From Promethearchaeota archaeon (GTDB taxonomy: Archaea > Asgardarchaeota > Lokiarchaeia > Sigyniarchaeales > Promethearchaeaceae), in assembly GCA_016933055.1 (NCBI GenBank), contig JAFGBS010000028.1, positions 270,001 through 302,000 of the forward strand: a stretch of 32,000 bases of DNA. Reading direction: 5' to 3'. The notes under the pieces were generated by a model. That model was not told the origin of the DNA, ran no database searches, and saw nothing but the letters and a program-made list of their open reading frames with translations. The position numbers and the translations under genes were made by a program. Position 1 is the stretch's first letter; every line of letters starts with the position of its first letter. This document shows, piece after piece, positions 11,742 to 30,627 of this stretch.

Positions 11742-11750
11742 GTGATTAAG

Positions 11751-12683: not shown

Positions 12684-12697
12684 GGTCTACATTTACC

Positions 12698-12926
12698 TAA
12701 TCAATATCTATCTGAGTTCTTAAGGCTCCATTGGTAACGTAAACTATGTATTTTTAACGTATTTTCACGTTGAACGTCAACAACCACATCCAACGTAAAA
12801 TCTACTGACCTTTTAGGGTTTAGGCACGCCTACGCTAAAAGCACCTTTTTACGTTCTTGAAAAAGGCTTTTTAGCGTAGTGTATTGAGAAATAGGCTATA
12901 GCATGAAGTGGGATGGATATTGATTA
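12698..12926. mobile_element. MITE-like element 1 (229 bp) with 15-bp terminal inverted repeats
   Basis: Left end TAATCAATATCTATC; right end GATGGATATTGATTA (reverse complement TAATCAATATCCATC), 14/15 match. No ORF. Internal hairpin at 12831-12878. Confidence 0.72.
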
Positions 12927-12990
12927 AGCAAAAAATAGAATTTATGTTTACTGACAAGTATCCACTAGAAAATTCTTAATAAGTAGTCAA

Positions 12991-14820
12991 ATGAACTTTG
13001 AATTTATGAGAGAAAAAAAGGAGAAAATCTATCGATATTTGTTTCTCCTGCCATTTTTACTCTTATTCACAGGGATTATATTATCTAATATTGGCTTTCA
13101 TACCGTTTATGACAGAGTAGAACGTTATTCCGCAAAATATCCTGATAATGACATCCCTATCATTGGTAATATCTATTATCCAAAATGTTCTGTTTATCCT
13201 AAACCACCTGTACTAGTATATATGTCAGGATTTATGATGCAAAAGGACCTAGATCCCCGAATTCCCATGGAATTTTGTAGAAGGGGATTTATGGTGGTAA
13301 GCGTGGATATGCATGGACATGGAGAAATGGGAGGAATATTTGGACCTAAAACATATACCGATGGCAAGAATGCAATTAATTATGTGTATGATTATCTCTC
13401 TGATATTGGAAATACATCACAAGTTGCGGTGGTAGGACATTCGGCAGGTGGTTTGGGAGCTTTAGGATTAAATGACTCCCGTATCCAAGCCATGGTTACT
13501 TGGGCGGCACCAGTCTATTATTCGGAAGAATTAATTGCGAATTTTGAAAGAGAATTTAATCTCTATAATCCCGAAATTGATTTATCTAATCGTACATTGA
13601 TTGAAGAACTTAATGCTAGTGCTCCCTATACAATCATCAGTGAAGCTAACCCTAAAAATTTACTTGCTATACATCATCTTGAAGACCCGTTAGTAAACAT
13701 ATCTCATGCATACGAAATTCAAAATAAAACAAATTGTACATTGATTGTCTTAAATGAAACTGAACAAGGGTATGCCCTTTTAAGTAATATGGATGAAGCG
13801 ACCCATGGATTATTATATGATTCGGTTATGCAAAGCACAATAAATTGGGTTGAAGATAAGCTAAACTTGCATAACGTTCCTATAAATACTGAGTACAAAT
13901 ATATCTCTAAAATGTATATAATTGCAGTAACTATATCCCTATTTAGCTTGATCGCTAGTTCATTTAGTTTCATATATTATTTCTGTAAACATTTTAACGA
14001 TACTCACCGACAACCAGATTTGACATTCACTACTTTCAGAGATCGAGTAGTTCATAAGTACAAAATGGAGAAAAATCCAAAACTAAAATTACTACTACCT
14101 TTTATTTTTGTAACTTTTCTATTCTTCTTAGCATTTATCATAGAATGGACTATTAATACGTTTTCCAGCCCATTTAACATGAATTTGGTATTTTTAATTC
14201 CTTCTATCTTTTTAGGAGCAATCCTTATATTATTTCTTCTAATGGCAAAAATAAAAATAAAAATCGACTTAAAAGGCTTGATTTTTTCAATTTTCTTTAC
14301 AATCTTACTTTTAGGAGGATTTATTTCCTACACGATAGGTTTCCGAACTATTATTATTTATCCTCATCATTTTGTGAATGTATTCTACGCTTTTATTGTA
14401 ATTAGCCCTTATATCATCTTAAGTAGCATTGTTTTATGGAAGGTACTATTTAATTTATTACCCGATATGATTTTTGACCCCATAACCGAATTTACAGAAG
14501 CTGTAATAAACCTTCTTCGCACTAAACTGCTACATAATAATAGCATAAACTTTTCAAATGAACACAATAAGTTAGTGCAGTTACGGTGGAAGGTTATCTA
14601 TATTGTAATCATACAATTACTGTTCAACTTGTTGATTTTTAGCCATCTTCCGTTTACTATTAATATTCTTACTGTTGGTATCCTATTGCTTATTTCGGGA
14701 TTGGGCTCCGCTTTATATTACTATCTGCGGCGTGAGATAACCAGTATGATTCTCTTTAATATATTAATTTTGACTTACTTCTATAGTACGTGTTACTGGT
14801 TTTTCCCAAATTTCCCATGA
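12991..14820 (+). CDS. Membrane-anchored alpha/beta hydrolase with C-terminal multi-TM domain
   Basis: N-terminal TM, nucleophile elbow GHSAGG, candidate Asp (EDPLV) and His (ATHG), and about 7-8 C-terminal hydrophobic helices. Confidence 0.82.
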   Translation: MNFEFMREKKEKIYRYLFLLPFLLLFTGIILSNIGFHTVYDRVERYSAKYPDNDIPIIGNIYYPKCSVYPKPPVLVYMSGFMMQKDLDPRIPMEFCRRGFMVVSVDMHGHGEMGGIFGPKTYTDGKNAINYVYDYLSDIGNTSQVAVVGHSAGGLGALGLNDSRIQAMVTWAAPVYYSEELIANFEREFNLYNPEIDLSNRTLIEELNASAPYTIISEANPKNLLAIHHLEDPLVNISHAYEIQNKTNCTLIVLNETEQGYALLSNMDEATHGLLYDSVMQSTINWVEDKLNLHNVPINTEYKYISKMYIIAVTISLFSLIASSFSFIYYFCKHFNDTHRQPDLTFTTFRDRVVHKYKMEKNPKLKLLLPFIFVTFLFFLAFIIEWTINTFSSPFNMNLVFLIPSIFLGAILILFLLMAKIKIKIDLKGLIFSIFFTILLLGGFISYTIGFRTIIIYPHHFVNVFYAFIVISPYIILSSIVLWKVLFNLLPDMIFDPITEFTEAVINLLRTKLLHNNSINFSNEHNKLVQLRWKVIYIVIIQLLFNLLIFSHLPFTINILTVGILLLISGLGSALYYYLRREITSMILFNILILTYFYSTCYWFFPNFP

Positions 14821-14876
14821 AGAAACATTCTCACAAGTTCATCATGTTTATTTTATCTCATTCACATCTCATCCTA

Positions 14877-15221
14877 ATGAGTTTTGATCCCCTAGCACCT
14901 GAAAATCGATTTGAAGCAGATGATTATAAGCATTTTATTGAAGAATTGCAGCGGATAATATATGAGGTTCCAGCTGGTAAAAGTGGAATGCAAGCAAAAT
15001 TCGCCAAAACTATTAAATACCTCAAAGAAAAACAGAATTTGGTTAAAGGTACTCATGGAAGGGTAATTAATAATGAGGAATTATTCAAACGTTTGTTTGA
15101 AGTGGTAGAAAGGGATTTGGAAGATGCGTCCTATGATGAAAACAAGTTCGAAAATCTTTTAATCTTAACTAAATTGCGAGAATTTATTTCACAAGAGAAG
15201 AAGAGACGACGAATTACTTGA
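14877..15221 (+). CDS. Hypothetical helical protein (114 aa)
   Basis: Charged, protein-like sequence from MSFDPLAPEN. The ORF-track start at 14790 overlaps the previous gene and is probably spurious. Confidence 0.65.
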   Translation: MSFDPLAPENRFEADDYKHFIEELQRIIYEVPAGKSGMQAKFAKTIKYLKEKQNLVKGTHGRVINNEELFKRLFEVVERDLEDASYDENKFENLLILTKLREFISQEKKRRRIT

Positions 15222-15325
15222 ACTTAAGAGTTCTGGGATTTCTATTTCTAATTTATGAACAAATATATATACATACATAGCTAACTTTTGAGCAATACCT
15301 AGACATAAAATGAGGTTCATGAAAA

Positions 15326-16246
15326 TTGGAACATTATCAAGAGCAACCCATAGAAAAACAAAGATGGATCATTCCTACATTTGCATGGGGATCCATGTTA
15401 ATTGCAAGTTCTTCGGGAATCATAATAATTCGAGAATTTGGTATTGATGTCCCATCTTGGTATCCATGGTTTCATGTCGGAGTATTGGGAATTATACTGA
15501 CGTTTTGCTTTTTAATTAAAAAACTTCATCCATTAAGAGCATATGTTGTAATTTTGTTGATACTATTCTTATTGGGATTTGGCGGAGGGTGGAATTGGGG
15601 ATTAATTCCATATGTCAGGAGTACACCAATATGGATCGAGTGGGAAACATCTTCATCATGGGGAATTGAAGCTCTTGGTCTTCATTCATTTCGCCTACTC
15701 CCGGCTCTAGTTATTTTCATATTTTTATTGAGTATCGGAAAAAAACCTCGTGATTTTTATCTCGTGATCGGTAATATCCGATCAGATGCTGAACCTACGA
15801 AAATTATTGGTATGAAGAAACCAGAACCATGGCCGAAGATCGGTTTAATTTTTGCAGGTATTTTCTTTTTAGGGACTTTAATTTTTTCCCTTATTGTTAA
15901 CCCGATAACTTGGGAGCAATTTAAAACAAATTGGTATTTCCTACCAATTGCTTTGATTATTGCTGCAATAAATGCTTTTAATGAAGAATTTTCATTACGG
16001 GCTGCACCCCTATCGCAGTTGTACGGGGTTCTGGGAAAAACACATTCACTTTTAATAACTAGCATCTATTTTGGAATTGGACATTTCTACGGGGTGCCTA
16101 ATGGAATTATAGGGATATTGCTATCGACATTTCTGGGATGGTTTATAGGAAAAAGTTTGATAGAAACTAAGGGAATTTTCTGGGCTTGGTTTATTCATTT
16201 TCTGCCAGACATAGTCATTTTTTCGTTTTACGCTCTTTCCACTTGA
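15326..16246 (+). CDS. CPBP (Abi/CAAX protease-like) intramembrane metalloprotease
   Basis: Motifs NEEFSLR (EExxxR), FGIGH and HFLPD in a multi-TM protein. TTG start with GAGGT upstream. Confidence 0.88.
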   Translation: MEHYQEQPIEKQRWIIPTFAWGSMLIASSSGIIIIREFGIDVPSWYPWFHVGVLGIILTFCFLIKKLHPLRAYVVILLILFLLGFGGGWNWGLIPYVRSTPIWIEWETSSSWGIEALGLHSFRLLPALVIFIFLLSIGKKPRDFYLVIGNIRSDAEPTKIIGMKKPEPWPKIGLIFAGIFFLGTLIFSLIVNPITWEQFKTNWYFLPIALIIAAINAFNEEFSLRAAPLSQLYGVLGKTHSLLITSIYFGIGHFYGVPNGIIGILLSTFLGWFIGKSLIETKGIFWAWFIHFLPDIVIFSFYALST

Positions 16247-16252
16247 TGGAAT

Positions 16253-16270
16253 AATTGATAGTTATCAATT
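16253..16270. terminator. Short inverted repeat between convergent genes, possible bidirectional terminator
   Basis: AATTGATA-GT-TATCAATT lies in the 35-bp gap between two stop codons. Confidence 0.3.
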
Positions 16271-16281
16271 TACGCAAAAAA

Positions 16282-17922
16282 TTATAATTTCTTAGAAGGG
16301 TTGAAAATTAATTTTAGAAAAAATTTCATGGGTTTATAGCAAGTTTTCTTCATTTTTTTTCCATTTATGTAAGTTTGCGAAACAACAATATTTAGTAGTT
16401 CAGTTGGACTAATTTGAAAGGGATCTTTAGGAAGAATAATGAAATCCGCACATTTACCCAGTTCTAACGTACCACGTTCGTCTTCTTCAAAAGTTGCATA
16501 AGCTCCATTATAAGTATAAGTTCTTAGTGCTTCATACACGGATATTCGCTCGGATTCTATCGGAAAGTTTACCATCCCGTGGATTTGTAACCACGGATCT
16601 AAATATTGCACAGGACTATCAGAAGAACCGCAGACAATTCCTCCAGTCTCGATAATGGTCTTCAAGGGAGTCTGTCTTTTTACAACCTCTTGCTCAAGAT
16701 ATTTCTGATAGGTATTCATTCCAGGATAATTTGCATCGATCCAATTGAATCCGGGCTGAGGGACGACTAATAAACCCAATTTATTTATTGCTTTTTCTAC
16801 GGCATCCTTGGATGGAAATTCAAAATGATCGATTCTGTGGCGATATTTATTATCGGTGTCATTGAATTCTTCCATAAGTTGTGAATACGCTGCAATTAAT
16901 TCATCGATAGCTCTGGTTCCTATTGCGTGAGAAGTAATTTGCGCACCCAGGGAATGGGCTTTTCTCATTAGGGGGAGTAAATCCTCTTTTGTTAATAATA
17001 GACTTCCATAGTTGTTCGGCTCTCCCCGATAAGGGATATCGAATGCTGCTGTTTTGGCTCCGACTGCACCATCCATATCCCAAGCACCGCATCCTCCAAT
17101 GCGCTTTGTTCGCATTTTGCGGAAAAATGGCGAAAGTTTTGAAATGTCTCGTATTTGAGGATATAATCGTAATTTTAACGGAATTTTGTTCCCAAAGAGT
17201 TTTAAAAATTTTAAGCTTATATCTTTAGTGGGATCTGCTTGGAAGCCATCTAAACAATGTATTCCTACTAAGCCCATTGCAATTGCATCATTTATAGTTT
17301 TTTGAAGTCCCTCGAGCAGATATTTAATGGTAAGATTATCAGTAAATAATTTTACTATCTTATCCATGTCAAATTCTTCCATATCTTCATTTAAAATTCC
17401 ATCATGTTCATCCGGGTTCAATCCTAACTTCTTTAAAACTAAAGATGAGAGTGAGACTGAATGTCCATCAATCGCAATAAAAGTAATTAATCGATTTGGA
17501 GCCCATTCATCAATTTCCATATGAGTAGGTAAACGATCCTCTCGAATTGATGGAATTATATAATTGTTAAATATGATAGGTTTGGAAGCTGGTGTATTTT
17601 CTACCGTACGGACAACAAGATCTTTCACCCCTTCAAGAGTATTGGGATTAAAGTGATTATTCTCATATACTGAGACTGGAGTGCTTAATACATTAATTGC
17701 AGCAGTCATAATAAAATGAACGTGACTGTCAATCAATCCGGGAAGAATAGTCTGATTTTGGGCGTTAATTACCTTTCTCGCGATTTGATTATGGTCTTCA
17801 TTCGGAGGATTTTTTGAATATAATTGTGAGATTTTCCCTTTCAAAACACTCATGGCAGCAAATTTTTCACCCTCTTGTGAAAGAGTGTATATATGGGCAT
17901 TGTAGATCAGTAAATCATCCAT
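16282..17922 (-). CDS. Amidohydrolase family 3 (YtcJ-like) metal-dependent hydrolase
   Basis: PGLIDSHVH, DG..GAKTA, HAIG, RIDHFE, GSSDSP, GTLELGKCADF. Confidence 0.9.
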   Translation of the reverse strand: MDDLLIYNAHIYTLSQEGEKFAAMSVLKGKISQLYSKNPPNEDHNQIARKVINAQNQTILPGLIDSHVHFIMTAAINVLSTPVSVYENNHFNPNTLEGVKDLVVRTVENTPASKPIIFNNYIIPSIREDRLPTHMEIDEWAPNRLITFIAIDGHSVSLSSLVLKKLGLNPDEHDGILNEDMEEFDMDKIVKLFTDNLTIKYLLEGLQKTINDAIAMGLVGIHCLDGFQADPTKDISLKFLKLFGNKIPLKLRLYPQIRDISKLSPFFRKMRTKRIGGCGAWDMDGAVGAKTAAFDIPYRGEPNNYGSLLLTKEDLLPLMRKAHSLGAQITSHAIGTRAIDELIAAYSQLMEEFNDTDNKYRHRIDHFEFPSKDAVEKAINKLGLLVVPQPGFNWIDANYPGMNTYQKYLEQEVVKRQTPLKTIIETGGIVCGSSDSPVQYLDPWLQIHGMVNFPIESERISVYEALRTYTYNGAYATFEEDERGTLELGKCADFIILPKDPFQISPTELLNIVVSQTYINGKKMKKTCYKPMKFFLKLIFNPSKKL

Positions 17923-17924
17923 TT

Positions 17925-19274
17925 TTATCCCACTAATTCAGTTTCAATGATTTTAATCCCTTTTGTTTCCGGAAGCACCGTCGCCGTTAAAATGCATACG
18001 CCCATTACACTTAGGGCAGATGAAATCAAGTATAAGTATTGTAAATCAAGAAATTTTACTAAAAAGCTTGAAAGTAGCGATCCCAGGATCAATCCTACTG
18101 CATAGGAAAAACTTCTCCACCCCGTAGCCGTACCTCGTGTGTGTGTAGGAAAGTTCTCTACGCAATATGTTTTTGACAGCATAAACATTCCCCAAAAAGA
18201 TCCATTCATAAAGAAACCAAATAGTGAAAAAATCCAAAAGATTCCCAAACTGGCGAATCGATTTGCTGCGAAAGCAATGATAGCGTAGAAAACTAAATTT
18301 ATACCCGCATAAATATACATGGTAGGTTTTCTACCTAATTTGTCCGCTAAGAACCCTGTAATGCCAAAGAACACAAAAGTACCCAACGTAGCTAGATAAA
18401 TTACATAGGTAACTTGATCTGGGCTTCCCCCGTGTGTTATAACAATTATTCCAGTGAGATACTCCTCAAATGTTGCGATTACTGCAGCCATCATGCCTAG
18501 AAGAAAGCCAATTATCATGAATGCAATTATTCTACGCCTGGTTTCAGGTTGTTTAAATGGAACTCCTAAGTTCGCCCGTTTAAATTTCTTCAGGAGGCTA
18601 ATTTCTTGTTTTGTCTGTTTTTTAAGTAAAAATGCTTTCGTTTCTTTCATTCCAAAACCTAGCAACGCTAAAACCATAGCTGCTAAAGCTAAATAATTCA
18701 TCCCTCTCCATTGAGACGGATTTATAGATGGTTCTGTTTTGATAAATATTTGACGACAAATCGGAATTGCTATTGCTCCCAGAGCACCAACCGTCGCTAT
18801 TAGATAGGAATACCTCGCTCTTTTCTCAGCTGGAGCTTCCTCAGCAACAATGATTACCCACATATCGCTGGAGAAAAATATCCACGACAACAGGAAACCG
18901 AATGTAAATAAGTAAATGTTACGTGATATATGCATTATAAGAGAGGCAAAACCCATCCCAAAGAATACGATAATCATCATGGGTTTTCGTCCTATGCGAT
19001 CCGCCAAGTTTTGCACAAAAATCACAAGCAGTAATCCTATAGAAGCGATAGCTTGAACCATATAAAACTCGGGATTTCCAATGTTAAAATCAGCTTGAAT
19101 ATAACTAACTACCGAGGTGTAATAACTAGTAGTATAAGTATCCATGAATTCATATAGCATCATATACGCGAATAAAAATACAATATAACCAACGGATCTC
19201 TGCACAAGTTCTGTAGATGATTCTTTTTTCATTACTATCAACTCATTTTTTCTATCATGTTTTCCTATAGTCAT
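17925..19274 (-). CDS. MFS transporter (co-transcribed with the amidohydrolase)
   Basis: Two motif-A copies (LADRIGRKP, LADKLGRKP), about 12 TM helices, C-terminal LPETKG. 2-nt gap to the next gene. Confidence 0.92.
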   Translation of the reverse strand: MTIGKHDRKNELIVMKKESSTELVQRSVGYIVFLFAYMMLYEFMDTYTTSYYTSVVSYIQADFNIGNPEFYMVQAIASIGLLLVIFVQNLADRIGRKPMMIIVFFGMGFASLIMHISRNIYLFTFGFLLSWIFFSSDMWVIIVAEEAPAEKRARYSYLIATVGALGAIAIPICRQIFIKTEPSINPSQWRGMNYLALAAMVLALLGFGMKETKAFLLKKQTKQEISLLKKFKRANLGVPFKQPETRRRIIAFMIIGFLLGMMAAVIATFEEYLTGIIVITHGGSPDQVTYVIYLATLGTFVFFGITGFLADKLGRKPTMYIYAGINLVFYAIIAFAANRFASLGIFWIFSLFGFFMNGSFWGMFMLSKTYCVENFPTHTRGTATGWRSFSYAVGLILGSLLSSFLVKFLDLQYLYLISSALSVMGVCILTATVLPETKGIKIIETELVG

Positions 19275-19680
19275 TAATTAAAAGATTACGTCACTTGGTT
19301 ATTCTAATTTGAGAATTAAAGCGAATCTATTTTTAACAATTAACAAAATATAGTCTTTGGGACATAATAGGAGGTTAAAATGAATTAGAATGCAATTAGA
19401 TTGCAAAAAATGATGTTAAAGATTATTTGTATGAGGAAGAAAATTTATTTAAACCGTAAATGGAGCAAAACGGTGTATAGCAAAAAACATTTGGATTATT
19501 ACAGAAAAAAAAACACTCAAATCTATGCTTTACCTCTAAAAAAAACATAAACAGATAATGAATTCCGAGAGTTTTACCTTAAAAGAGAAGAAAAAATCAA
19601 TTATTAGTTAAAAAAAAATCTTTGTTCAGCACTTTATCAGCGATAACTTATATTATCTTTATAATATTGAGTGGAAGTGT

Positions 19681-19845
19681 GTGTTAAGTCACACAATTTA
19701 TGATTATGAAAGAGAATTAGATCATGGAAAAGAGACAGAAAGGAGATCTTTTCCGGTCAACAGAGAAATGTATTTGGATACGAAAAATCATATTTTATAT
19801 CTTGAGGACGAGGAGGGTATACTTTATTCTTTATTGATAAACTGA
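19681..19845 (+). CDS. Putative unannotated small protein (54 aa, GTG start)
   Basis: My translation: VLSHTIYDYERELDHGKETERRSFPVNREMYLDTKNHILYLEDEEGILYSLLIN. Purine-rich island in an AT-rich spacer with TATA-like sequences at 19648-19664. Confidence 0.4.
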   Translation: MLSHTIYDYERELDHGKETERRSFPVNREMYLDTKNHILYLEDEEGILYSLLIN

Positions 19846-20098
19846 ATTTGTATAGTTATGTCGTCGAACCACATAAACGAATTCGATACTTAGAGAAATT
19901 CAAACTGAAAGAAGTGGAATAAATTAGAGCTATATCAGAAATCAATTATAAGTAATTGAATTTTCGAGAAAGGTTTTTTCTTTTATTTCATGCCGAATTT
20001 TATTGCCAATTATTAGGTTCAATTTCAGAAGAAGATTTAAGCAAGTTTCTATAACGATTGATAATAGAGTTCGTATTCTGACGGGAGGAAATGCAAAA

Positions 20099-21334
20099 AT
20101 GGAGAATTCTCATCTAAATAATTTGGGTATTTCTGCCAAAAAGCGCAATTCAGTATTCCTCTCGCTAATTTTTGTAAATATTATACGAAATATTGGTTAT
20201 AATTTTGTTAATATCGGTTTACCTGATTTTATAACAGGTTTAGCCGGTGACATAGCACTCTATGGTGTAGCCGTTGGCATATACCAGGTAACACAAACAA
20301 TTTTTCAAATCCCTATGGCATATATTTCGGATAAAATTGGGCGAAGAAACGCGATATTTATTGGATTTTCTATTCATATAATCGGAACTATATTATGCGG
20401 ATTTTCTACTCAATTATGGCAGATCATTTTATTTCGAGCCATTCAGGGGATAGGAGTTTACGCTTCCATCATTTTCGCTACTCTGGCTGATTTGTATGTT
20501 GAAAATGAAAGAGCCCAAAAATTTTCGTTTTATTCAGTTTCCCTCACAATTGGCTATATTCTAGGAAATTTCTTTGGAGGAATTGTCTCAGATTACATTC
20601 CTCTAAACTATCTGTTCTTCATCTCTGCAATCATGAACCTTTTTGCTTTTATCTATTTAATTATTATCATACCAGAGACAAATCCTCACAAATTAAATTT
20701 AAGACACCATCTAAATACTAAGAAATCGATAGAAAAAGATCTTCCGAGCAAAAAAGAAAAAAACTGGATAACATTACCCTTCATTTTCGGATTAATTGTT
20801 CATGGAATTCGTAATTTTTTCTTTTCTGGATTTTTGACTTTTTCAATTTGGAATTATGCTCAATTATTTGATTTGAGTGGAACTCAGACAGGTTTAATCC
20901 TCCTTCCTCTCACGCTGTTTTATATCGGTGGATTATTAATTGCTCCTGCTTTTGGTAAAAAAACAAAATATTTTCCCTATATTATGATCACATCCGTAAT
21001 ACTTGCTTTTTTATTAATAACAACAAGCATCAGCTTTACCAGTCTGTGGTTATATCTGAGTTTAACTTTCTTCCTAGCGGTGATTTTAGCAATGCAAGAT
21101 CCAATAAATACTGCTTTTATAACGACTCACATGGATGAATCTAAAAGAGGATTGGGAAGTGGAATTATGAGTATGGTCGGGATTTTTTCAAGCGCATTGG
21201 GGCAAATTGGCATATCAGGACTTGCACGATTAACTAGTTTTCAATGGGTTCATATAATAGCAGGATTCTTTTGGCTGTTTCTTGTGATTATAATTCTCTT
21301 AGTAAATTCACGAATAAAACGGAATGAAAATTAA
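20099..21334 (+). CDS. MFS transporter
   Basis: Motif A ISDKIGRR, FRAIQGIG, about 12 TM helices. GGGAGG at 20083-20088 favours ATG 20099 (MENSH). Confidence 0.9.
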   Translation: MENSHLNNLGISAKKRNSVFLSLIFVNIIRNIGYNFVNIGLPDFITGLAGDIALYGVAVGIYQVTQTIFQIPMAYISDKIGRRNAIFIGFSIHIIGTILCGFSTQLWQIILFRAIQGIGVYASIIFATLADLYVENERAQKFSFYSVSLTIGYILGNFFGGIVSDYIPLNYLFFISAIMNLFAFIYLIIIIPETNPHKLNLRHHLNTKKSIEKDLPSKKEKNWITLPFIFGLIVHGIRNFFFSGFLTFSIWNYAQLFDLSGTQTGLILLPLTLFYIGGLLIAPAFGKKTKYFPYIMITSVILAFLLITTSISFTSLWLYLSLTFFLAVILAMQDPINTAFITTHMDESKRGLGSGIMSMVGIFSSALGQIGISGLARLTSFQWVHIIAGFFWLFLVIIILLVNSRIKRNEN

Positions 21335-21434
21335 GAAGAGCATTAATTGATTTTTGGAGAGATTAACGATTTATTTATAATATGTGTGCGGTGAGTATAT
21401 TATAGTTAGACCATTTGTTAAGAATTGAGACGAA

Positions 21435-22610
21435 ATGTTAAGTTACAAGTATCTTATTATTGGCGGTGCGATGACATCTAGCGCTGCTATTGACGGAATT
21501 CGTAGTATAGATGAAGATGGCTCCATAGGAATTATTTCTGAGGAGGAGTATAAACCTTATGAACGACCCCCTTTAACTAAGGGCTTATGGCATGAAACAA
21601 AATTAGATTCCATCTTTCTGGAGTTTAACAATACTAATATAGAATTTTACTTAAACACTAAAGCTACAAAAATTGATGCTAAAAAGAAAAATGTAACTGA
21701 TAATAAAGGTCAGCAGTATAAATATACGAAATTACTACTCGCGACAGGTGCTTCTCCGAAAATTATTTCGAAAGAATCTGATCGAGTAATTTATTATCGA
21801 TATTTGCGTGATTATAAAAAACTACGGAAATTAACGGAAAAATACTCCACTTTTGGTATAATCGGTGGAGGGTTTATCGGTTCTGAAATTGCAGCTGCTT
21901 TAGCATCTTTAGGAAAAAAAGTCACAATGATTTTTCCTGAAGAAGGAATAGGTGGATTACGATTCCCTGAAGAGTTAGCAATCTACTTAAATAGATATTA
22001 TGAAGATAATGGTGTTGTTGTTCATCCACGAACAAAAGTCGAAACGGTTGGTGAAAAAAATAACCGCGTTATCATTAAAACAGATAAAGGAGAATTTTCC
22101 TATGATGCAGTAATTGTTGGAATTGGAGTTTCTCCCAATACTGATCTAGCCCAATCTATAGGAGTGAAAATAGATGATGGTATCAAAGTAGATGAATATC
22201 TTAGGACTTCCGAAGCAGACATCTATGCCGCTGGTGATGTCACGAGCTTTTATTCCCCCGATTTAGATAGGAGTATTAGAGTAGAACATGAAGATAATGC
22301 ATATGAACAAGGTAAACTGGCAGGAAAAAACATGGCGGGAGCCTTAAAGAAATACGATCATTTGCCATTTTTCTACTCCGACCTTTTTGACTATGGATAT
22401 GAAGCAGTTGGCATACTTAACCCTAAATTAGAAGTGATTGAAGATTGGAGGGATGAATATGAAGAGGGGATCATATATTACTTGCAGAATGGAATTGTTG
22501 TTGGAGTACTACTTTGGAATGTGTGGGATCAACTGGATAACGCAAGGGAATTGATTGCAGGAAAGAAAAAATTACAAAAAGAGGAACTTCTCGGATACTT
22601 ACCGAAATAG
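21435..22610 (+). CDS. FAD/NAD(P)-dependent oxidoreductase, AIF/ferredoxin-reductase-like
   Basis: IIGGAM, PYERPPLTK, LLLATG, GGGFIGSE, IYAAGDV, RVEHEDNA, FFYSDLF, VVGVLLWN. Confidence 0.9.
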   Translation: MLSYKYLIIGGAMTSSAAIDGIRSIDEDGSIGIISEEEYKPYERPPLTKGLWHETKLDSIFLEFNNTNIEFYLNTKATKIDAKKKNVTDNKGQQYKYTKLLLATGASPKIISKESDRVIYYRYLRDYKKLRKLTEKYSTFGIIGGGFIGSEIAAALASLGKKVTMIFPEEGIGGLRFPEELAIYLNRYYEDNGVVVHPRTKVETVGEKNNRVIIKTDKGEFSYDAVIVGIGVSPNTDLAQSIGVKIDDGIKVDEYLRTSEADIYAAGDVTSFYSPDLDRSIRVEHEDNAYEQGKLAGKNMAGALKKYDHLPFFYSDLFDYGYEAVGILNPKLEVIEDWRDEYEEGIIYYLQNGIVVGVLLWNVWDQLDNARELIAGKKKLQKEELLGYLPK

Positions 22611-22635
22611 TATTAATTTTTTCAAATCATAGATA

Positions 22636-23853
22636 TTAATTAATATAGATGAAATCCTTCGCGGGTGAGACCAAGAATTCGCATCCTCGTTCCGTTACAA
22701 CAACCATCTCTTCTAATGATACACTACCATGATGTTCAGTTCTTATGCTGGGTTCAAGAGTAAATATTTGACCGACTTCTATTAATTTCTTAGGGAGATC
22801 ACCATACCGTTCCCATATCGGACCTAACATCCCCCCTCCATCATGAGCCATAATTCCTACTTGGTGTCCCAAACCATGCAAATACTCTTTATATCCCCTC
22901 GAGAGTTGATAATCTCGAACTATCTTGTCAATTTTATAACCTGGAATCCCCGGCTTAATATTATCTGCAGCAAGTTGAATTCCATTGATAATTGTTTCAA
23001 GCGCGTGGTGCAATTCATTAGGGACTTCTTCCTTTTTTCCAAAAAACCACATTCTCTGGAGATCACTTGCGTATCCATGAAAGAGAATTCCGAAATCATT
23101 ATGAAGAGTACTACCCTCGGAAATAACATTTGATGTTTGTGGTAAAACGTGGCCAAATTCTTTTGGGCTAATATCTACAGCAGGATTACCGATTTGTTGC
23201 CAAGAGAACCCTAATCCTCGTTTTTGTACTTCAGCATGAAACATTTGCTGTATTTCAAATTCATTTTGACCTATTTTAAGCTGTTTCGTGATCAAGTGAT
23301 TGATCTCTTCCGTAATATCGCAAGCTTTACGGATAAGAGCTATTTCAGTTTTAGATTTATTGCTACGTATTGTGTTTACAATCTTTTGTGCACTTGTGAA
23401 GTTATTCTTATATCTTGGAATTAGTTGGTTAAGTAAAAGGAACATTCCGTGACTCAGACCATCTGCAGAAAAATCATCTAAGGAAAAATTTAAGCCGATT
23501 TTTTTTGGATTTAACTCTTTCATTTTAGCTTGTAAATGAGATTTTATTCCTTTTTCATATCCAATGACCTCATCCCAGAATCCTTTTTTTTCTTCAGCTG
23601 CAGCATCAAAATTTGCGACTAAAGCACATTTCTTTAAAGATCCATCGGATTGTATGGCAAAGATGAATGCTGATGCAAGAACAATATCACCCCCTACAAC
23701 AAATTTCATAGAACTATCGGGTGTCGTGGCGGTTTCTCGCGCAAATATTATCCAGCAATCAACACCTGCATCAACCATAATTTGAGGTAGTTTTGCGTGC
23801 TTTTCTTGAATTATCTTTAGATGTTCCTCTAATGGTGTAGTTTCTTGGTTCAT
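22636..23853 (-). CDS. M24 family Xaa-Pro peptidase
   Basis: Creatinase-like N-domain. Metal ligands in DFG, DLQR, HGLGHQVG..HD, LEP and LEE. Confidence 0.92.
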   Translation of the reverse strand: MNQETTPLEEHLKIIQEKHAKLPQIMVDAGVDCWIIFARETATTPDSSMKFVVGGDIVLASAFIFAIQSDGSLKKCALVANFDAAAEEKKGFWDEVIGYEKGIKSHLQAKMKELNPKKIGLNFSLDDFSADGLSHGMFLLLNQLIPRYKNNFTSAQKIVNTIRSNKSKTEIALIRKACDITEEINHLITKQLKIGQNEFEIQQMFHAEVQKRGLGFSWQQIGNPAVDISPKEFGHVLPQTSNVISEGSTLHNDFGILFHGYASDLQRMWFFGKKEEVPNELHHALETIINGIQLAADNIKPGIPGYKIDKIVRDYQLSRGYKEYLHGLGHQVGIMAHDGGGMLGPIWERYGDLPKKLIEVGQIFTLEPSIRTEHHGSVSLEEMVVVTERGCEFLVSPAKDFIYIN

Positions 23854-23970
23854 GATTGGATTTATAGAATGAATTATTTTTAAAATGGAATAATAGTTAG
23901 CATTGAAGGCAATTTAAAACTAAATAACGAGAACAAAGTGATAATTTCGGTTATTTTTTTCATGGTGTTT

Positions 23971-25428
23971 TTATAAACTAACTTTAAATGAATGAGCATA
24001 ACTTGCTGGAAGAGAGTTTGGAATATTTACCTCAAGAGAATTTTTGTCAAATTTCCACTCCAACTCTATTTTCATACCTAGAATTTCGATCTTTTTTATT
24101 TGGTTAAATCCCAGGTTCTTCAGACGTATAGTTGTATCTTGAGGATTTCCTAACAAAATGATATAAATTGTCAATTCTTTTGAAGTAAATCTTATCGGAA
24201 TTCCACATTTCGTTTCACTTTGGGGGATTTTCCAAGGTCGAGTTTCATAAATTGCTTCTCCATTGACCTTTAACCAGTTCCCAAGTTCGAGCAACAATTT
24301 CTTTTGGAAATCGGGTATGGTTCCATCCGATTTTGGACCTACATTTATGAGGAGGTTACCATTTTTACTTACCACATCGATCAATTGATGAATCAGTTCC
24401 TTGGGGCTTAAATAATCTTTTTCTGATTCTTTTTTATTGTACCCAAATGAGCTACCCAAACCACGACAAGTTTCCCATTTGTATTTTTTGATTTCCGATT
24501 CTACTTGATATTCTGGGGTGGAGAAATCATACAAAGGAAGATAATATTCTCTGCTTTCTTGAGAATCTTTTTTATTTTTTGTAATCATACGAAATACGAT
24601 GTTGTTGATGATTTTACCAATTATTGGATGTCTTATACACCATCTAACAATAGAAGGAATCTGTGTCCAACGATTATTAATTACACCCTCAGGATTTTTG
24701 GTGTAAAAATATGCGAAAATCTTCAGTTTATTCGATTTAGCGGGATATCCAATATCATTCCAAAGGATCCACGGTTGATAGGTATCAATAAGCTCGTACC
24801 AATGATTTTCTGCATATTTTGGATATTCTGGTTGCTTTGGTTCATTATCTAGCATAGTAACAAAGTCATTGATGCTATTTTCTTCAAAAGACCAATCAAT
24901 TTTCCCCGAATAATATAATCCCATTCTTAAATTTTGCTTCTTAACCGCTTTTGTTAACTCCCATACAATATCTCGGCTAGCATGATAATTCTTCTTATAG
25001 GGATTTGGATATTTTGAAGGCCATAATGTGAATCCATCATGATGTTTAGCAACTAATACAACATATTTTGCTCCACTTTGTTTAAAAATAGATACCATTT
25101 CATCTGGATTCCATTTCCTAATTTCTTGATTAAAAATCGGGGCAAAATCTTCGTATCTAAATTCAGATCCGTATTGTTTTTGATGGTATTCATAAGTTTT
25201 TGTCTCTTTTAGTCTTAAAGAATTCTGATACCATTCTGCGTAAGGATTTCTGTAAAATTGACTTTCAATCCCGCTATCTTTTTGTATTTCATGATAATTC
25301 TTAGCACTTATTTCAGCAAATGCAGGAATGGAATATAAACCCCAATGAACGAAAATACCTAATTTCACGTCGTGATACCATTGAGGAACTTTATGTTTTC
25401 TTATGGAACGACGAGTTGGTTTAAACAT
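23971..25428 (-). CDS. Alpha-L-fucosidase (GH29)
   Basis: GIFVHWG, AEWY, KHHDGF, LWND nucleophile, TPEY acid/base, KWETCRG, VVSKNGNLLINVGP. No signal peptide. Confidence 0.95.
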   Translation of the reverse strand: MFKPTRRSIRKHKVPQWYHDVKLGIFVHWGLYSIPAFAEISAKNYHEIQKDSGIESQFYRNPYAEWYQNSLRLKETKTYEYHQKQYGSEFRYEDFAPIFNQEIRKWNPDEMVSIFKQSGAKYVVLVAKHHDGFTLWPSKYPNPYKKNYHASRDIVWELTKAVKKQNLRMGLYYSGKIDWSFEENSINDFVTMLDNEPKQPEYPKYAENHWYELIDTYQPWILWNDIGYPAKSNKLKIFAYFYTKNPEGVINNRWTQIPSIVRWCIRHPIIGKIINNIVFRMITKNKKDSQESREYYLPLYDFSTPEYQVESEIKKYKWETCRGLGSSFGYNKKESEKDYLSPKELIHQLIDVVSKNGNLLINVGPKSDGTIPDFQKKLLLELGNWLKVNGEAIYETRPWKIPQSETKCGIPIRFTSKELTIYIILLGNPQDTTIRLKNLGFNQIKKIEILGMKIELEWKFDKNSLEVNIPNSLPASYAHSFKVSL

Positions 25429-25470
25429 CTATCAGGATATAGATAGTAATGATGCAATTTAAGATGGTTG

Positions 25471-25490
25471 ATACTCAGAATTCTGAGAAT
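25471..25490. promoter_or_regulatory. Palindromic candidate operator in the GH29/GH16 divergent promoter
   Basis: ATACTCAGAATTCTGAGAAT: perfect 14-bp core CTCAGAATTCTGAG (25474-25487), 9 of 10 arm pairs overall. Confidence 0.4.
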
Positions 25491-25590
25491 TTTTTCTTAA
25501 GATAAAATGTACCCCATGGTGTTTGGAATTCTTTGTCAATTATTATAATCCGCATTCATTTAATATAGATAAAATGCATAAAAAGAGGAT

Positions 25591-26472
25591 ATGGTTAGAT
25601 TTATGAGTATAAAATATCGAATTCTCAAAATCTTACACGTGATCTGCATTGTATCTCTTATCACTTATTCTCCGCAAAAATCAGAATCTGTGGTGAAATC
25701 TGGGACCAATCAAGATGGTATCTCATTTTCGGGTTATCAGTGGAATATCAAGACATCATCAAATACTCTGGTAGGACCAGGTCCTAATTATTTTAATGAT
25801 AGCATCCACCACGTGTGGGTAGATACCTATGGGTTCTTACACCTTCGTATAACTCATAATATTTATGAAGATATTTGGTATTGCGCTGAAATCTTTTCCG
25901 TGGAATCATTCGGATATGGAACATATCAATTTACACTCGCTCCAGGATTTGATTTATTAGACAAAAACGTAGTTCTTGGTCTATTCACTTATTTGGATGA
26001 TTTTAATGAAATAGACATTGAATTTGCAAAATGGGGTAATGATGAAAATGAAAATGGTCAATATGTCCTACAACCATCATGGAAAATGAATCATAAAAAG
26101 CGATTTAATTTTATTTCTAATACAGAAGATTCGATACACGGATTTAAGTGGTGCAAAAATTCTATTCGGTTTTGGTCATTAATTTCTGAAAATGAAGTCA
26201 GATGGATATATTTTGGTCCGGGCATTCCAGAACCCAGTACTGAACATGTGAATATCAACCTATGGCTAATGCAAGGATTGGCACCTTCTAATTTTTTAGA
26301 AGCTGAAGTTATAATCAAATCCTTCGAGTTTATTCCATTCGAGTGTTTGAATTGTCCGATAGGCTTCTGGTGGGTAGCATGTTTTTCAATTGTCGGATTT
26401 GTCGCAATAATCACTATCATTACGATAGTATTTTGGGACAAAAAGAGAAGAATGAAATCAAAATTACTTTAA
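25591..26472 (+). CDS. Membrane-anchored GH16-like glycoside hydrolase
   Basis: Catalytic ExDxE motif (NEIDIEF), N-terminal hydrophobic signal, and a C-terminal TM helix followed by KKRR. Confidence 0.8.
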   Translation: MVRFMSIKYRILKILHVICIVSLITYSPQKSESVVKSGTNQDGISFSGYQWNIKTSSNTLVGPGPNYFNDSIHHVWVDTYGFLHLRITHNIYEDIWYCAEIFSVESFGYGTYQFTLAPGFDLLDKNVVLGLFTYLDDFNEIDIEFAKWGNDENENGQYVLQPSWKMNHKKRFNFISNTEDSIHGFKWCKNSIRFWSLISENEVRWIYFGPGIPEPSTEHVNINLWLMQGLAPSNFLEAEVIIKSFEFIPFECLNCPIGFWWVACFSIVGFVAIITIITIVFWDKKRRMKSKLL

Positions 26473-26684
26473 TTATTTTGTCTGGATAAATTACGCTTTC
26501 CCACTATCGTAAATATGATATTTACTATATCAGCTACACCAAAAATACAAATAAAAAAAAACCCTGTCAAATTCATATTCAAATCTCATTCCATTGACCT
26601 TAAAACTGACAAAAAAATACCAATAGCTAAAAAAATATTAAATCCTAAAAATCCAATAATAGTACGCAGTTTATAGTTATATAT
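26469..26684 (-). pseudogene. Decayed small 2-TM membrane-protein gene (in-frame TGA, no ATG start)
   Basis: My translation: IYNYKLRTIIGFLGFNIFLAIGIFLSVLRSME*DLNMNLTGFFFICIFGVADIVNIIFTIVGKRNLSRQNN*. TGA at 26588-26586. The stop shares TTAA (26469-26472) with the GH16 stop. Confidence 0.5.
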
Positions 26685-26756
26685 TTTTAAACAATTAGAT
26701 AATTTGCATTACTATAATTTTTGGAGAAGAATTATTGGAGAAAAAAAAATATAAAA

Positions 26757-28151
26757 TTAAGATTTGATTTTGACTTCTGGTGGTTCTTCACTTGTGGATG
26801 TGATTTCCAGTACTTCCTCGGCAAAATTTTCAGATGCTGAACCATAGTCAATAGGAGGAGTTTTCTCTCCCTCTTGTTGATATGATATTTGTCCGAATCG
26901 CTTTTTTGTCAATTTGTGCAGCAATAAGAATCCAAATACTGCCATTAAGCCGATTCCAAAGATAATATACCAAAGCACTCTTGAATCGAAAGTGTCCATT
27001 ACATAACCTGCCGCAACCACTCCGAATAGATTTGGCACTATCCACGAAAAACTACCGATTGCCATATATCTACCACGCTTATCCTCCGGTGAAAATAATC
27101 CAATAAGTGACATTTGATGAGGAGCAACCAAACATTCACCAATTGTAATTATAACCATTGCAATAAAAAACATCCAAACCTCACTTACAAATCCATACAT
27201 GCCAAATCCAATTGAATATAGTAATGTTCCTAATCCAATCATGATAAATGGCGGATATTTTCGAATTAATCGGGTTATTAACGCTTGAAATATCACAACA
27301 ATAAGTGCATTAAGGCTAATTAAATATCCAAACCATGCAGCAGGAAAATTATATTCATTCAACAAAAATACACTCAGCGTCGAGTTAAGTTGCATGCATA
27401 CTAAACTCATAAGTGCAAGAACTAAAATATAAAACATGAAAATTCCGTCACCAAAAACTTGGAAATATCCCTGCATTGTTTGTTTAAACGAGCTTTGCCT
27501 ATTCTGAGTTTGCGTAATTTCACCCTCAACTTTTGGTTTTGCTTCTGGTTTCGTTTCGGGTATTTTAATGAATACAATTATTGCTGTAATAATAGATGTA
27601 ACAGCGTCAAATATGAATAAAAGCAAGTAAGTACCGGTGGCAGTGAAGATGAAACCTCCCAAGATCGGGCCAACAAAAGCGCTTACATTGAAAGCAATCC
27701 GAAAAATTCCAAATCCTTCTGTTCTTTTTTCAGGTGGAAGAATATCTGTCATTAATGCGCCTCGTGCTGGACCACCAACTGAGCCTAAAAGGCCTGAAAG
27801 AGCTGCTAATACATAAAACCATTTTATTTCTGCTAAGAAAGGCATAAAAAGGCTGGATAAGGCACTTGATACTAGACCAAAAATTATTACAGGTTTTCGA
27901 CCGACTTTATCTGCAATAGCGCCGCCAAAAAGCCCACCAAAAATTCCCCCTATTGAAAACATCGTGAACATAAAACCTATATCTGTGAAGCTAATGGAAA
28001 ATTGTGTGTAGACAAAATAGCCAAAAAATGGCGCTAGCATATAACCACCCATTAAATCTATAAAAACTGCTAAGATTATTACCCAAAAAGCGGATGGATA
28101 ATAGGTGAGTTTTTCTTTAAGTGTTATTTTACTATTTTTTTTATTGGACAT
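26757..28151 (-). CDS. MFS transporter (drug:H+ antiporter/MdtH-like)
   Basis: Motif A IADKVGRKP, GPILGG, GEC...P, about 12 TM helices and an acidic C-terminal tail. Confidence 0.92.
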   Translation of the reverse strand: MSNKKNSKITLKEKLTYYPSAFWVIILAVFIDLMGGYMLAPFFGYFVYTQFSISFTDIGFMFTMFSIGGIFGGLFGGAIADKVGRKPVIIFGLVSSALSSLFMPFLAEIKWFYVLAALSGLLGSVGGPARGALMTDILPPEKRTEGFGIFRIAFNVSAFVGPILGGFIFTATGTYLLLFIFDAVTSIITAIIVFIKIPETKPEAKPKVEGEITQTQNRQSSFKQTMQGYFQVFGDGIFMFYILVLALMSLVCMQLNSTLSVFLLNEYNFPAAWFGYLISLNALIVVIFQALITRLIRKYPPFIMIGLGTLLYSIGFGMYGFVSEVWMFFIAMVIITIGECLVAPHQMSLIGLFSPEDKRGRYMAIGSFSWIVPNLFGVVAAGYVMDTFDSRVLWYIIFGIGLMAVFGFLLLHKLTKKRFGQISYQQEGEKTPPIDYGSASENFAEEVLEITSTSEEPPEVKIKS

Positions 28152-28179
28152 ATATCAAGAACCACATAAATTTCAATTA

Positions 28180-28250
28180 GTTGTTAATATACAACGTTTC
28201 ATATATAAGGTTTTCTACAACGTTGTGATGGAAATGTTGTTTACAACGAT
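28180..28250 (-). promoter_or_regulatory. BRE/TATA promoter of the MFS gene embedded in six GTTGT/ACAAC half-sites
   Basis: Minus strand AGAAAACC-TTATATAT (28216-28201). Half-sites at 28180, 28191, 28217, 28222, 28236 and 28243. Confidence 0.6.
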
Positions 28251-28384
28251 TATGAAAAACACAATGATCAAAACATTAAAAACAAATTAGGGCTGGATGT
28301 TATCAAATACCTATTTTTGAAGTATATGCGTGCAAATTCAAAAATATCGTATGAAACTATTCGAATTAGTTTTATAAAACATAG

Positions 28385-28725
28385 ATGACCAGATATATAA
28401 CGATAAGGAACATCATACTCGGAAAAATCGGAATAACGGTATTTAGCGTTTATTTTATCGCAATTTTTGTTGAAATTATGTTTATAATTTTCGATATTAT
28501 CCCGAGTATTGCAATCTACCAGTATGATTTCTCATTTTAGCGTTATTTTTTGTTATTTACACAATTACAGCTATTAAATATTATGAATTCTACGAGATTG
28601 CATCTAGAGTTGATTTATTATCTTTTTCAGTCATTTCTGGGATGCAACTTGTCTCTGCAGGATTTTCCATTCTTCTCCATTCACAGACCATTAAAAATTG
28701 TAATTTCATTGTTGGTTATAATTAA
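28385..28725 (+). pseudogene. Frameshifted membrane-protein pseudogene
   Basis: Frame 1 MTRYITIRNIILGKIGITVFSVYFIAIFVEIMFIIFDIIPSIA continues after a 1-nt shift near 28513 as NLPV*FLILALFFVIYTITAIKYYEFYEIASRVDLLSFSVISGMQLVSAGFSILL (TGA 28525-28527, stop 28723-28725). Confidence 0.5.
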
Positions 28726-28953
28726 AATTCATTATAAAATGAATTAGTACTGTTATTAAATATGCAAATGGAGACATAAAGTCGTAATATCAATTCAGCA
28801 TTCAGAGTAATTTCTTTTTCAATTCAATTCAATTATAATTTTCTGTTTTTAAACCTGAAATAAAAACATGGAAACAAAACTATCGAAAAATTTATGAAAA
28901 TTAGTTGCAGTTGAACCCCTAAATTCAAATTTGGGATATGCACTATATTAACC

Positions 28954-30483
28954 ATGAGTAAAACAGAAGAATTTATCACACAAATTATAAATGGGTATCA
29001 ACCCAAGGGTGAGTATCTGATTTTAGGAGGAGCAATGCTGAATGGGGAGGCAATTCCCGATACCCATGTAAAAATACCTCTTAAAACCATGAACCGACAT
29101 GGATTAATAGCCGGAGCAACCGGCACGGGGAAAACAAAAACCCTTCAAGTCATATCAGAGCAACTTTCCGAAAAAGGTGTACCTGTTTTAGTTATGGATA
29201 TAAAAGGTGATCTGAGCGGGATTGCAAAACCTGGTGTAGAAAAATCATTCATCACGGAAAGACACGCAAAAATTAATTTACCCTATTCAGTGAAAGGTTT
29301 TCCAGTCGAATTAATGTCCCTTTCCCAGCAAGATGGTATTCGTATGCGAGCCACGGTTTCTGAATTTGGACCAGTATTATTTTCCCGAATTCTTGATTTG
29401 AACACGACTCAAGCGAGCATACTATCCACTATTTTCAAGTACTGTGATGATAATAAAATGGCACTGCTTGATTTAAAAGATATAAAAAAAGTTATTCAGT
29501 TTATTACTGATGAGGGTAAGGAAGATTTTGAGAGTGAATACGGGAAAATCTCTGCTTCTTCGACAGGGGTCATCCTTCGAAAGATTATTGAACTCGAACA
29601 ACAAGATGCTGACCTCTTTTTCGGAGAAATCTCTTTTGATATTGATGATCTTATGAGGGCTGATAGAAAGGGAAACGGTTATATTAATATTATCAGATTA
29701 GATGATATTCAAGATAAGCCTAAGCTGTTTTCAACCTTTATGTTATGTTTGTTAGCCGAAGTTTACGATCAAATGCCCGAAAAAGGAGATGCCGAAAAAC
29801 CAGAGTTGGTGATTTTCATAGATGAAGCACATCTTATATTCAAACAAGCTAGTAAAACTCTACTCGAGCAAATTGAGACTATTGTGAAACTGATCCGATC
29901 AAAAGGAGTAGGAATATTCTTTGTAACACAAAATCCTATGGATGTACCCAATAGTGTACTAGCTCAACTTGGACTAAAGGTACAGCATGCTTTGAGAGCT
30001 TTTACGGCGACCGATCGAAAAGCGATAAAACTCACTGCTGAAAATTTTCCAATATCAGATTATTACCAAACTGATGAAGTGCTTACTTCTCTTGGTACGG
30101 GAGAAGCTTTGGTAACTGCGTTAAATGAAAAAGGGAGACCAACTCCTCTTGCAGTTACAATGATTCGAGCACCAATGAGCAGAATGGATATTTTAACACC
30201 CAAAGAGCTTACTGCTATCAATACTGCCTCAGACCTTGTAAAAAAATATAATAAAACCGTTGATCGCGAAAGTGCTTATGAAATTTTAAGTAAAAAAATC
30301 GAGATTATAGAGAAAGAACAGAAAAAGGAAGTTGAAAGGAAAAAAAAAGAAACGGAAAAAAAACAAACATCAAAATCTTCATCTAACCGAAGCAGAAAAA
30401 GCACTAAATCTGTAACAAAAGTCTTAACCAGTGCCACTTTTATTAGAGGAGCATTGGGTATTTTAAAAAAAGTCATTCGTTAA
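28954..30483 (+). CDS. DUF853 / YjgR-family HerA-like ATPase
   Basis: NRHGLIAGATGTGKT (Walker A), MDIKGDLSG, VIFIDEAH (Walker B), LIRSKGVG, VQHALRAFT. Confidence 0.93.
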   Translation: MSKTEEFITQIINGYQPKGEYLILGGAMLNGEAIPDTHVKIPLKTMNRHGLIAGATGTGKTKTLQVISEQLSEKGVPVLVMDIKGDLSGIAKPGVEKSFITERHAKINLPYSVKGFPVELMSLSQQDGIRMRATVSEFGPVLFSRILDLNTTQASILSTIFKYCDDNKMALLDLKDIKKVIQFITDEGKEDFESEYGKISASSTGVILRKIIELEQQDADLFFGEISFDIDDLMRADRKGNGYINIIRLDDIQDKPKLFSTFMLCLLAEVYDQMPEKGDAEKPELVIFIDEAHLIFKQASKTLLEQIETIVKLIRSKGVGIFFVTQNPMDVPNSVLAQLGLKVQHALRAFTATDRKAIKLTAENFPISDYYQTDEVLTSLGTGEALVTALNEKGRPTPLAVTMIRAPMSRMDILTPKELTAINTASDLVKKYNKTVDRESAYEILSKKIEIIEKEQKKEVERKKKETEKKQTSKSSSNRSRKSTKSVTKVLTSATFIRGALGILKKVIR

Positions 30484-30509
30484 TTTTATCTTTTTTCTTC
30501 TTTTTTTAT

Positions 30510-30627
30510 TAATCAATATCTACACCACTCCTTAAGGGTTGATAACCCAAATTAACCATGTGGTTTTAGTGTAAAACTAAACCGAGCCTACGATGACCCG
30601 TATAGGGTGGGTGATAGATGTTGATTA
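30510..30627. mobile_element. MITE-like element 2 (118 bp), same terminal repeat family as element 1
   Basis: Left end TAATCAATATCTA; right end TAGATGTTGATTA (12/13 match). Imperfect pairing extends to about 32 bp. Confidence 0.7.

Follow-up and report, generated by a model that had tools for sequence, protein, structure and literature searches.

Two short TA-flanked inverted-repeat elements of a Promethearchaeota archaeon as probable members of one miniature transposon family

Two short intergenic segments, each bounded by TA and closed by inverted repeats, raise the question of whether they were inserted as mobile DNA or are kept by the host for its own use. The segments, e1 (12698-12926, 229 bp) and e2 (30510-30627, 118 bp), lie in a 32,000-nt stretch of the genome of a Promethearchaeota archaeon (GCA_016933055.1, genome G000; 3.76 Mb in 36 contigs, 91% complete). 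This stretch, C2:270001-302000, is the window, and positions of e1, e2 and their neighbouring genes are counted within it. The genus is represented by one further genome, the metagenome-assembled genome Promethearchaeota archaeon AMARA_1 (G001, 76% complete), which is referred to as the sister genome. C numbers denote contigs and L numbers extracted loci (L042 in G000:C4, L043 in G000:C13, L170 in G001:C35).

It is likely, with a probability of about 0.8, that e1 and e2 are separately inserted, non-autonomous copies of a DNA transposon, that is, miniature transposable elements with inverted repeats (MITEs), of one family confined, among the genomes searched, to one genus of Promethearchaeota (Loki-type Asgard archaea). 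The units are short and non-coding, carry terminal inverted repeats (TIRs), show a TA duplication at the level of the family, and are dispersed as copies at non-orthologous sites. A multi-copy, non-coding family with inverted repeats and TA flanks, as proposed in a first-pass annotation of the window, was upheld for both elements.

The two elements and their family

The four termini read as first annotated, and TA bounds both elements on both sides. The e1 repeats pair at 14 of 15 positions; the e2 ends, TAATCAATATCTACA and TAATCAACATCTATC, pair at 12 of 15 and, if one indel is allowed, extend to approximately 20 nt. Both elements open with TAATCAA and close with TTGATTA, and the family end consensus is TAATCAAYATCTAT. 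The shared internal motifs were also recovered, with CTTAAGG equally offset in the two left arms, GTGGG adjoining both right repeats and GCCTACG present in each element. When folded as single strands, the terminal repeats formed the closing stem of both elements (z = -4.1 for e1 and -4.6 for e2), and none of 200 shuffles folded equally well. Both are too short for an open reading frame (ORF) of 80 or more amino acids, and none is listed within them.

Further copies of the TIR, which the first-pass annotation had proposed to seek genome-wide, were found by the dozen. In the genome, the 14-mer end TAATCAACATCTAT had 27 perfect and 38 single-mismatch occurrences, whereas the reversed genome gave 0 and 2, respectively. 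With Y at position 8, the end gave 32 exact matches (control, 0); the sister genome had 4, and none of 39 other relatives had more than 2, not above their control counts. Units bounded by paired ends measured 118 to approximately 430 bp, many ends had a decayed partner 200-500 bp away, and several subfamilies could be told apart by the sequence beside the terminal repeat. The closest pair of family copies was approximately 96% identical, contig-end matches excluded.

The e1 subfamily comprises at least nine full copies, 2 in the genome and 7 in the sister genome. In the sister genome, BLAST with e1 hit eight e1-like places; here it hit one further full copy (C16:280372-280617), and a subfamily profile matched approximately 35 copies or fragments in the genome at E < 0.001. 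In the nine-copy alignment, homology ended exactly at TAATCAA and TTGATTA, and the flanks were unrelated except for T-rich and A-rich runs. The e1-type copies are non-orthologous, because in a six-frame comparison of their loci the element alone matched. Identity among the copies was 63-83% and the closest pairs were cross-genome (82%); therefore, sub-lineages are common to both hosts. Likeness between such cross-genome, non-orthologous copies reaches 82%, compared with approximately 76% for flanking coding DNA. This excess suggests either that the element is constrained or that it spread once the hosts had split.

The kinship of e1 and e2, as first claimed, held for the shared ends, while interior likeness was weak. 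An e1-subfamily profile built with 25 nt of flank per side matched the left arm of e2 (E = 1.9e-4), covering the first 64 nt of the element and 7 nt of its left flank, the latter being T-rich. The central hairpin module of e1 is absent from e2, the ends of which are intact, and neither genome of the genus contains a full-length or close relative of e2. The element is thus read as a member that is short, has diverged or has lost internal sequence, and its relation to e1 would be based mainly on the ends.

The sister genome had neither element at the orthologous loci, so that the alternative of a fixed, conserved regulatory feature fails. There, the ortholog of the gene upstream of e1 is followed by a different gene with no element behind it, and the hydrolase gene downstream of e1 is not beside it; the ortholog of the CCG-domain gene after e2 has other neighbours and no element. 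One flanking gene is thus retained per site. For one sister copy (L166:2257-3265, G001:C145), both flanks mapped to the same two genes on C24 here. A 51-nt spacer (G000:C24:24027-24079) stands there in place of approximately 1.1 kb in the sister genome, comprising an ORF of approximately 250 aa for a membrane protein and the e1-type MITE. As the membrane-protein ORF differs along with the element, C24 was ruled out as an orthologous empty site.

In the sequence collections scanned, the family was not recovered outside the two genomes. The e1 left-end pattern gave 0 matches in JGI metagenome contigs, phage and plasmid records gave no match to e1-specific or TIR patterns, and IMG/VR contigs gave only isolated, chance-like matches to the end pattern. 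A lone 1415-bp end pair from IMG/VR (L086) encloses ordinary virus genes and was rejected. In sequencing runs, contigs of the probable source run spanned e2 without differences, and a 252-nt contig of an independent 2017 hot-spring run was identical across e1. Contigs of both of these independent runs began at 12700, inside the left end of e1, in sequence common with the copy at C6:400690. No RNA data set was listed among the holders of the elements, two metatranscriptome runs contained next to no words of them, and an exact-protein look-up returned one Logan contig for one protein and no record for the second.

Table 1. Positions of e1, e2, their parts and the adjoining genes in the window
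Feature	Position	Strand	Details
e1, full-length member of the e1 subfamily	12698..12926	+	229 bp; limits of homology (TAATCAA/TTGATTA) from the nine-copy alignment
e1 left terminal inverted repeat	12698..12712	+	Reads TAATCAATATCTATC; TA is its first two bases
e1 right terminal inverted repeat	12912..12926	-	Reads inward TAATCAATATCCATC; TA at its end
e1 central hairpin module	12814..12887	+	GGGTTTAGG, then conserved palindromic stem enclosing a sequence-variable inner stem; covariance model R1, 82 bits
e2, short member with family ends and e1-like left arm	30510..30627	+	118 bp
e2 left terminal inverted repeat	30510..30523	+	
e2 right terminal inverted repeat	30614..30627	-	Exact family consensus
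Gene upstream of e1	11742..12683	+	313 aa, no Pfam family; stop codon 14 nt before e1
Gene downstream of e1	12991..14820	+	609-aa S9/S15-type alpha/beta hydrolase; start codon 64 nt past e1
Gene upstream of e2	28954..30483	+	HerA-like ATPase; stop codon 26 nt before e2
Convergent gene after e2	30693..31895	-	CCG / 4Fe-4S domain protein; stop codon 65 nt past e2

Proxy genes occupy 86% of the genome, and 59 of 65 family ends lie outside them. The first-pass annotation had placed each element shortly after a stop codon. The two distances were confirmed (Table 1), while the feature did not hold for the family: 31 ends face the 3' end of a gene (median 149 nt) and 28 face a 5' end (median 162 nt), near the control medians of 162.5 nt (3') and 147.5 nt (5') for random intergenic TA. 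A position just after a stop codon was therefore ruled out as a family rule.

At several loci, family ends stand 7-110 nt from peptidase or hydrolase paralogues of M29, M42 and S9/S15 type (C23:16810-17919, C17:203304-204428, C30:1304-3193 and window 12991-14820). Upstream of e1, the 313-aa ORF directly adjoins, with no gap, the end of the gene before it, which encodes a Ras-family small GTPase (197 aa, Pfam E = 4e-44; together 11148-12683). Ras-family small GTPases are typical of Asgard archaea, and the pairing may reflect a functional link.

TA duplication, target preference and the hairpin module

That TA is a duplicated target, and not part of the repeat, was supported by a paralogous empty site and by abutting elements. 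At C4:3106-3330, a 225-bp family member lies inside a pseudogene, the intact paralogue of which, encoding a membrane protein of 448 aa (C13:17372-18715), has a single dinucleotide, AA, at the insertion site; the filled site has TA at both ends of the insert. The paralogues align without gaps on both sides of the insert, and the two junctions repeat TA and nothing more, which ruled out TTAA or a 3-bp duplication. The A-run to the right of the insert is present also in the empty site, and is therefore part of the target and not of the element. At C27:107597/8, two elements abut and have one TA in common, as would follow from insertion of the second into the TA adjoining the first; abutting pairs with two TAs were not encountered. 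A 2-bp TA duplication is thus supported for the family rather than for e1 and e2 themselves.

The C4/C13 match (856 bp) is the longest repeat in the genome, and was rejected as a parent element since it encodes a membrane protein, not a transposase. The C4 pseudogene (L042:3036-4202) is broken up compared with its paralogue (L043:3373-4719), the product of which is multi-pass, and a third fragment of the gene lies at C13:21503-21793.

Around the 65 ends, T was found at positions -6 to -4 in 71-83% (background, 32%), A at -2 in 52%, and C or T at -1 in 75%. The preferred target is a palindrome, TTTNNN-TA-NNNAAA, in detail about TTTKAY-TA-RTMAAA. It resembles (about TTTGAT-TA-ATCAAA) the tip of the element itself (GTTGAT-TA-ATCAAC), and this likeness may account for the end-to-end pile-ups of elements observed at C27:107253-108024, C6:400690-401435 and C2:36166-36757.

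Most family copies, including e1, carry GGGTTTAGG followed by a long hairpin. In its conserved outer stem, CTACGMTAAAAAGC pairs with GCTTTTTAGCGTAG; inside it stand CC/GG and then an inner stem that is complementary within each copy and wholly different in sequence between copies. Across 14 copies, 89% of cells paired, compared with 36-57% when the partner column was slid. Both sides had changed in 6 of 18 pairs, and none of 500 shuffles attained the observed covariation score. The motif TTTTTA is present on both arms of the conserved module. The hairpin, present in e1 and at approximately 27 other sites, is probably a cis feature of the element. Templated repair can maintain the complementarity of a DNA palindrome, and the covariation is no proof of a selected RNA or DNA structure.

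A covariance model of the module matched 27 times in the genome and 13 times in the sister genome (4 of the 13 being the opposite strand of the same sites), and had no match in 149 other genomes of the order from 24 genera. Of the order's 151 genomes, the module is thus restricted to 2, which belong to the same genus. The exact module pattern was found among 185,579 species genomes only in the sister genome, and the hairpin pattern gave 0 matches in JGI metagenome contigs.

The search for a transposase and the rival explanations

A transposase-bearing insertion sequence with the same ends, which the first-pass annotation had proposed to look for, was not found in any source searched. By TIR pattern, no autonomous element with family ends was present in the genome, the sister genome or the 39 other relatives. 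None was recovered from the JGI metagenome, IMG/VR, GTDB species genomes, or phage and plasmid records, which were scanned with e1-specific or TIR patterns. Profiles for mariner and pogo transposases had no match in either genome of the genus, although the control search likewise matched 0 of 14 reference genomes, which lends these two negatives little weight. For DDE_3, the control search was positive in 5 reference genomes.

The only DDE genes found in the genus are of two other kinds. DDE_Tnp_1 is represented here by a pseudogene with four stops (G000:C8:3190-3495, L045) and in the sister genome by an intact gene of 421 aa (G001:C33, L044:1360-2625); no family ends were found within approximately 1.5 kb on either side of these two loci. 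The sister genome also holds an element of approximately 1.8 kb (G001:C35, L170:130-1950) that encodes a 556-aa Mutator/MULE-like transposase with weak Pfam hits. Its inverted repeats of approximately 30 nt start with CAAACCAATTTAAAC, and it lies between a T-run and an A-run. Within the same taxonomic family, four further genomes have IS630 elements, with ends unrelated to those of the MITE. None of 12 IS630 loci of related genera carried the family repeat, and the ends of a two-copy element in genome G011 were unrelated.

Candidates within the genome were likewise rejected. Behind a lone end at C17:633925, itself a 45-nt fragment, stand two single-copy ORFs that match no Pfam family. When considered as a source of a multi-copy transposase ORF, the ten largest families of paralogues proved to be housekeeping proteins (peptidases, Cdc48, thermosome, AFOR, MFS and the like) or had no Pfam match.

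The mechanism we favour for e1 and e2 as MITEs is that a transposase acting in trans would bind the ATCAAYATCTAT ends, move copies by cut and paste, and insert them where TA is cut in a staggered manner. Duplication of TA would point first to a DDE enzyme of IS630/Tc1-mariner type, which would have been lost, or be present but unassembled, in both genus assemblies. It is this duplication that suggests the IS630 link. Because the enzyme is missing from both assemblies, the family may now be a fossil, its closest pair of copies being approximately 96% identical and e1-subfamily copies 63-83% alike. Derivation from IS630/Tc1-mariner with mobilisation in trans, as first annotated, was not borne out, no DDE_3 gene being found here or in the sister genome.

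Several observations weigh against this account. Profiles for DDE_3 (IS630), rve, DDE_Tnp_4 (Harbinger), the TnpB zinc ribbon and IS1595 had no match in either genome. The DDE_Tnp_1 and Mutator-like loci lack the family ends, and the two sister-genome proteins have no homologue in this genome (tblastn). The sister genome did not offer the clean empty site for e1 or e2 that had been sought, both elements standing at synteny breaks, and contigs of four runs showed no join that skips either. The paralogous empty site on C13 has AA and not TA, so that one substitution must be assumed. Finally, both genus assemblies are incomplete (91% and 76%).

Given the transposase results, the same kind of element could have been moved by an IS5-type enzyme (ISL2/IS427-like, with a 2-4 bp duplication) or by an unrecognised transposase; in that case, movement would depend on the hairpin as a cis signal, and the family might be active to this day. 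In favour of this, neither genome yielded an ITm-type transposase, the genus does have DDE_Tnp_1 genes, certain copy pairs are approximately 96% identical, and cross-genome e1 pairs exceed the flanking coding DNA in likeness. The hairpin has retained its pairing through changes on both sides and through wholly divergent inner stems, although palindrome arms can remain complementary by within-strand templated repair, with no selection needed, and the ends of e2 are intact despite the missing hairpin. The DDE_Tnp_1 loci lack matching ends, which speaks against an IS5-family (ISL2/IS427-type) MITE, and the genome has no transposase-like multi-copy ORF family. On balance, movement by such an enzyme is a minor possibility. 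Another reading is that the family is moved by a transposase outside the reach of current profiles, with the covarying hairpin as its cis recognition signal or as an RNA or DNA element used by the host. This is rather improbable; if true, it would mean a new type of transposon restricted to a single Asgard genus, and not an IS630 relic.

That the elements are structured sequences of the host (small RNA genes, promoters or terminators) kept for their function would agree with the folding of both beyond all shuffles, with the end of e1 lying 64 nt upstream of a gene start, and perhaps with TTTTTA on both module arms, which may resemble an archaeal TATA box. Both elements are absent from their orthologous places in the sister genome, copies stand at unrelated loci and face 3' and 5' gene ends in similar numbers, one copy disrupts a coding sequence, and e2 lies between convergent genes. 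Rfam had no match in window 12400-13200. A host function is accordingly very improbable as the reason for their presence. Chance inverted repeats in AT-rich intergenic DNA might be suspected in a genome of 65% A+T, where end matches with three mismatches are common (933); the 65 exact and one-mismatch ends against 2 in the control, together with full-length homologues in a second genome, refute this.

Comparison with known systems and significance

MITEs derived from IS630/Tc1-mariner elements include SM1 of Sulfolobus, with ISC1048, and the Stowaway elements of plants. The family resembles these in its small non-coding units, short TIRs, TA duplication, AT-rich near-palindromic target and many dispersed intergenic copies. 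It differs in that no such transposase was found in the genus and that the IS630 ends of related genera are different, and for these reasons we only infer an IS630 derivation.

The Correia elements of Neisseria (CREE/NEMIS) are a TA-flanked inverted-repeat family of approximately 100-160 bp, mostly intergenic, with transcripts that fold into long hairpins; they have no known transposase in their host. By analogy, the present family may be compared with them as a TA-flanked, mostly intergenic inverted-repeat family for which no host transposase was found. Unlike the Correia elements of a bacterial host, it resides in an archaeon, ranges from 118 to approximately 430 bp, and includes several subfamilies with different internal modules.

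Palindrome-associated elements derived from IS200/IS605 (PATEs), which are common in archaea, have neither terminal inverted repeats nor a target duplication, and their partner is TnpA(Y1)/TnpB. The family is like them non-coding, hairpin-rich and archaeal, but its inverted repeats and TA duplication ruled out this identity; the TnpB zinc ribbon was unmatched, and Y1_Tnp was not searched.

A 2026 survey of archaeal insertion sequences reported a mean of 8.5 per Asgard genome, with IS200/IS605 the commonest family (in >65% of Asgard genomes) and IS630 occurring across archaea; it treats insertion sequence families and leaves out MITEs (PMC13343696). Full-text literature searches found no description of Asgard MITEs, which are apparently undescribed so far.

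As mobile elements go, the family of e1 and e2 is ordinary. A family that duplicates TA in the prokaryotes most closely related to eukaryotes would bear on the history of IS630/Tc1-mariner only if its transposase is found. For the genomes themselves, the repeats of the family break short-read assemblies, as where contigs of two runs start at 12700, and they mark variable regions and synteny breaks in both genomes of the genus.

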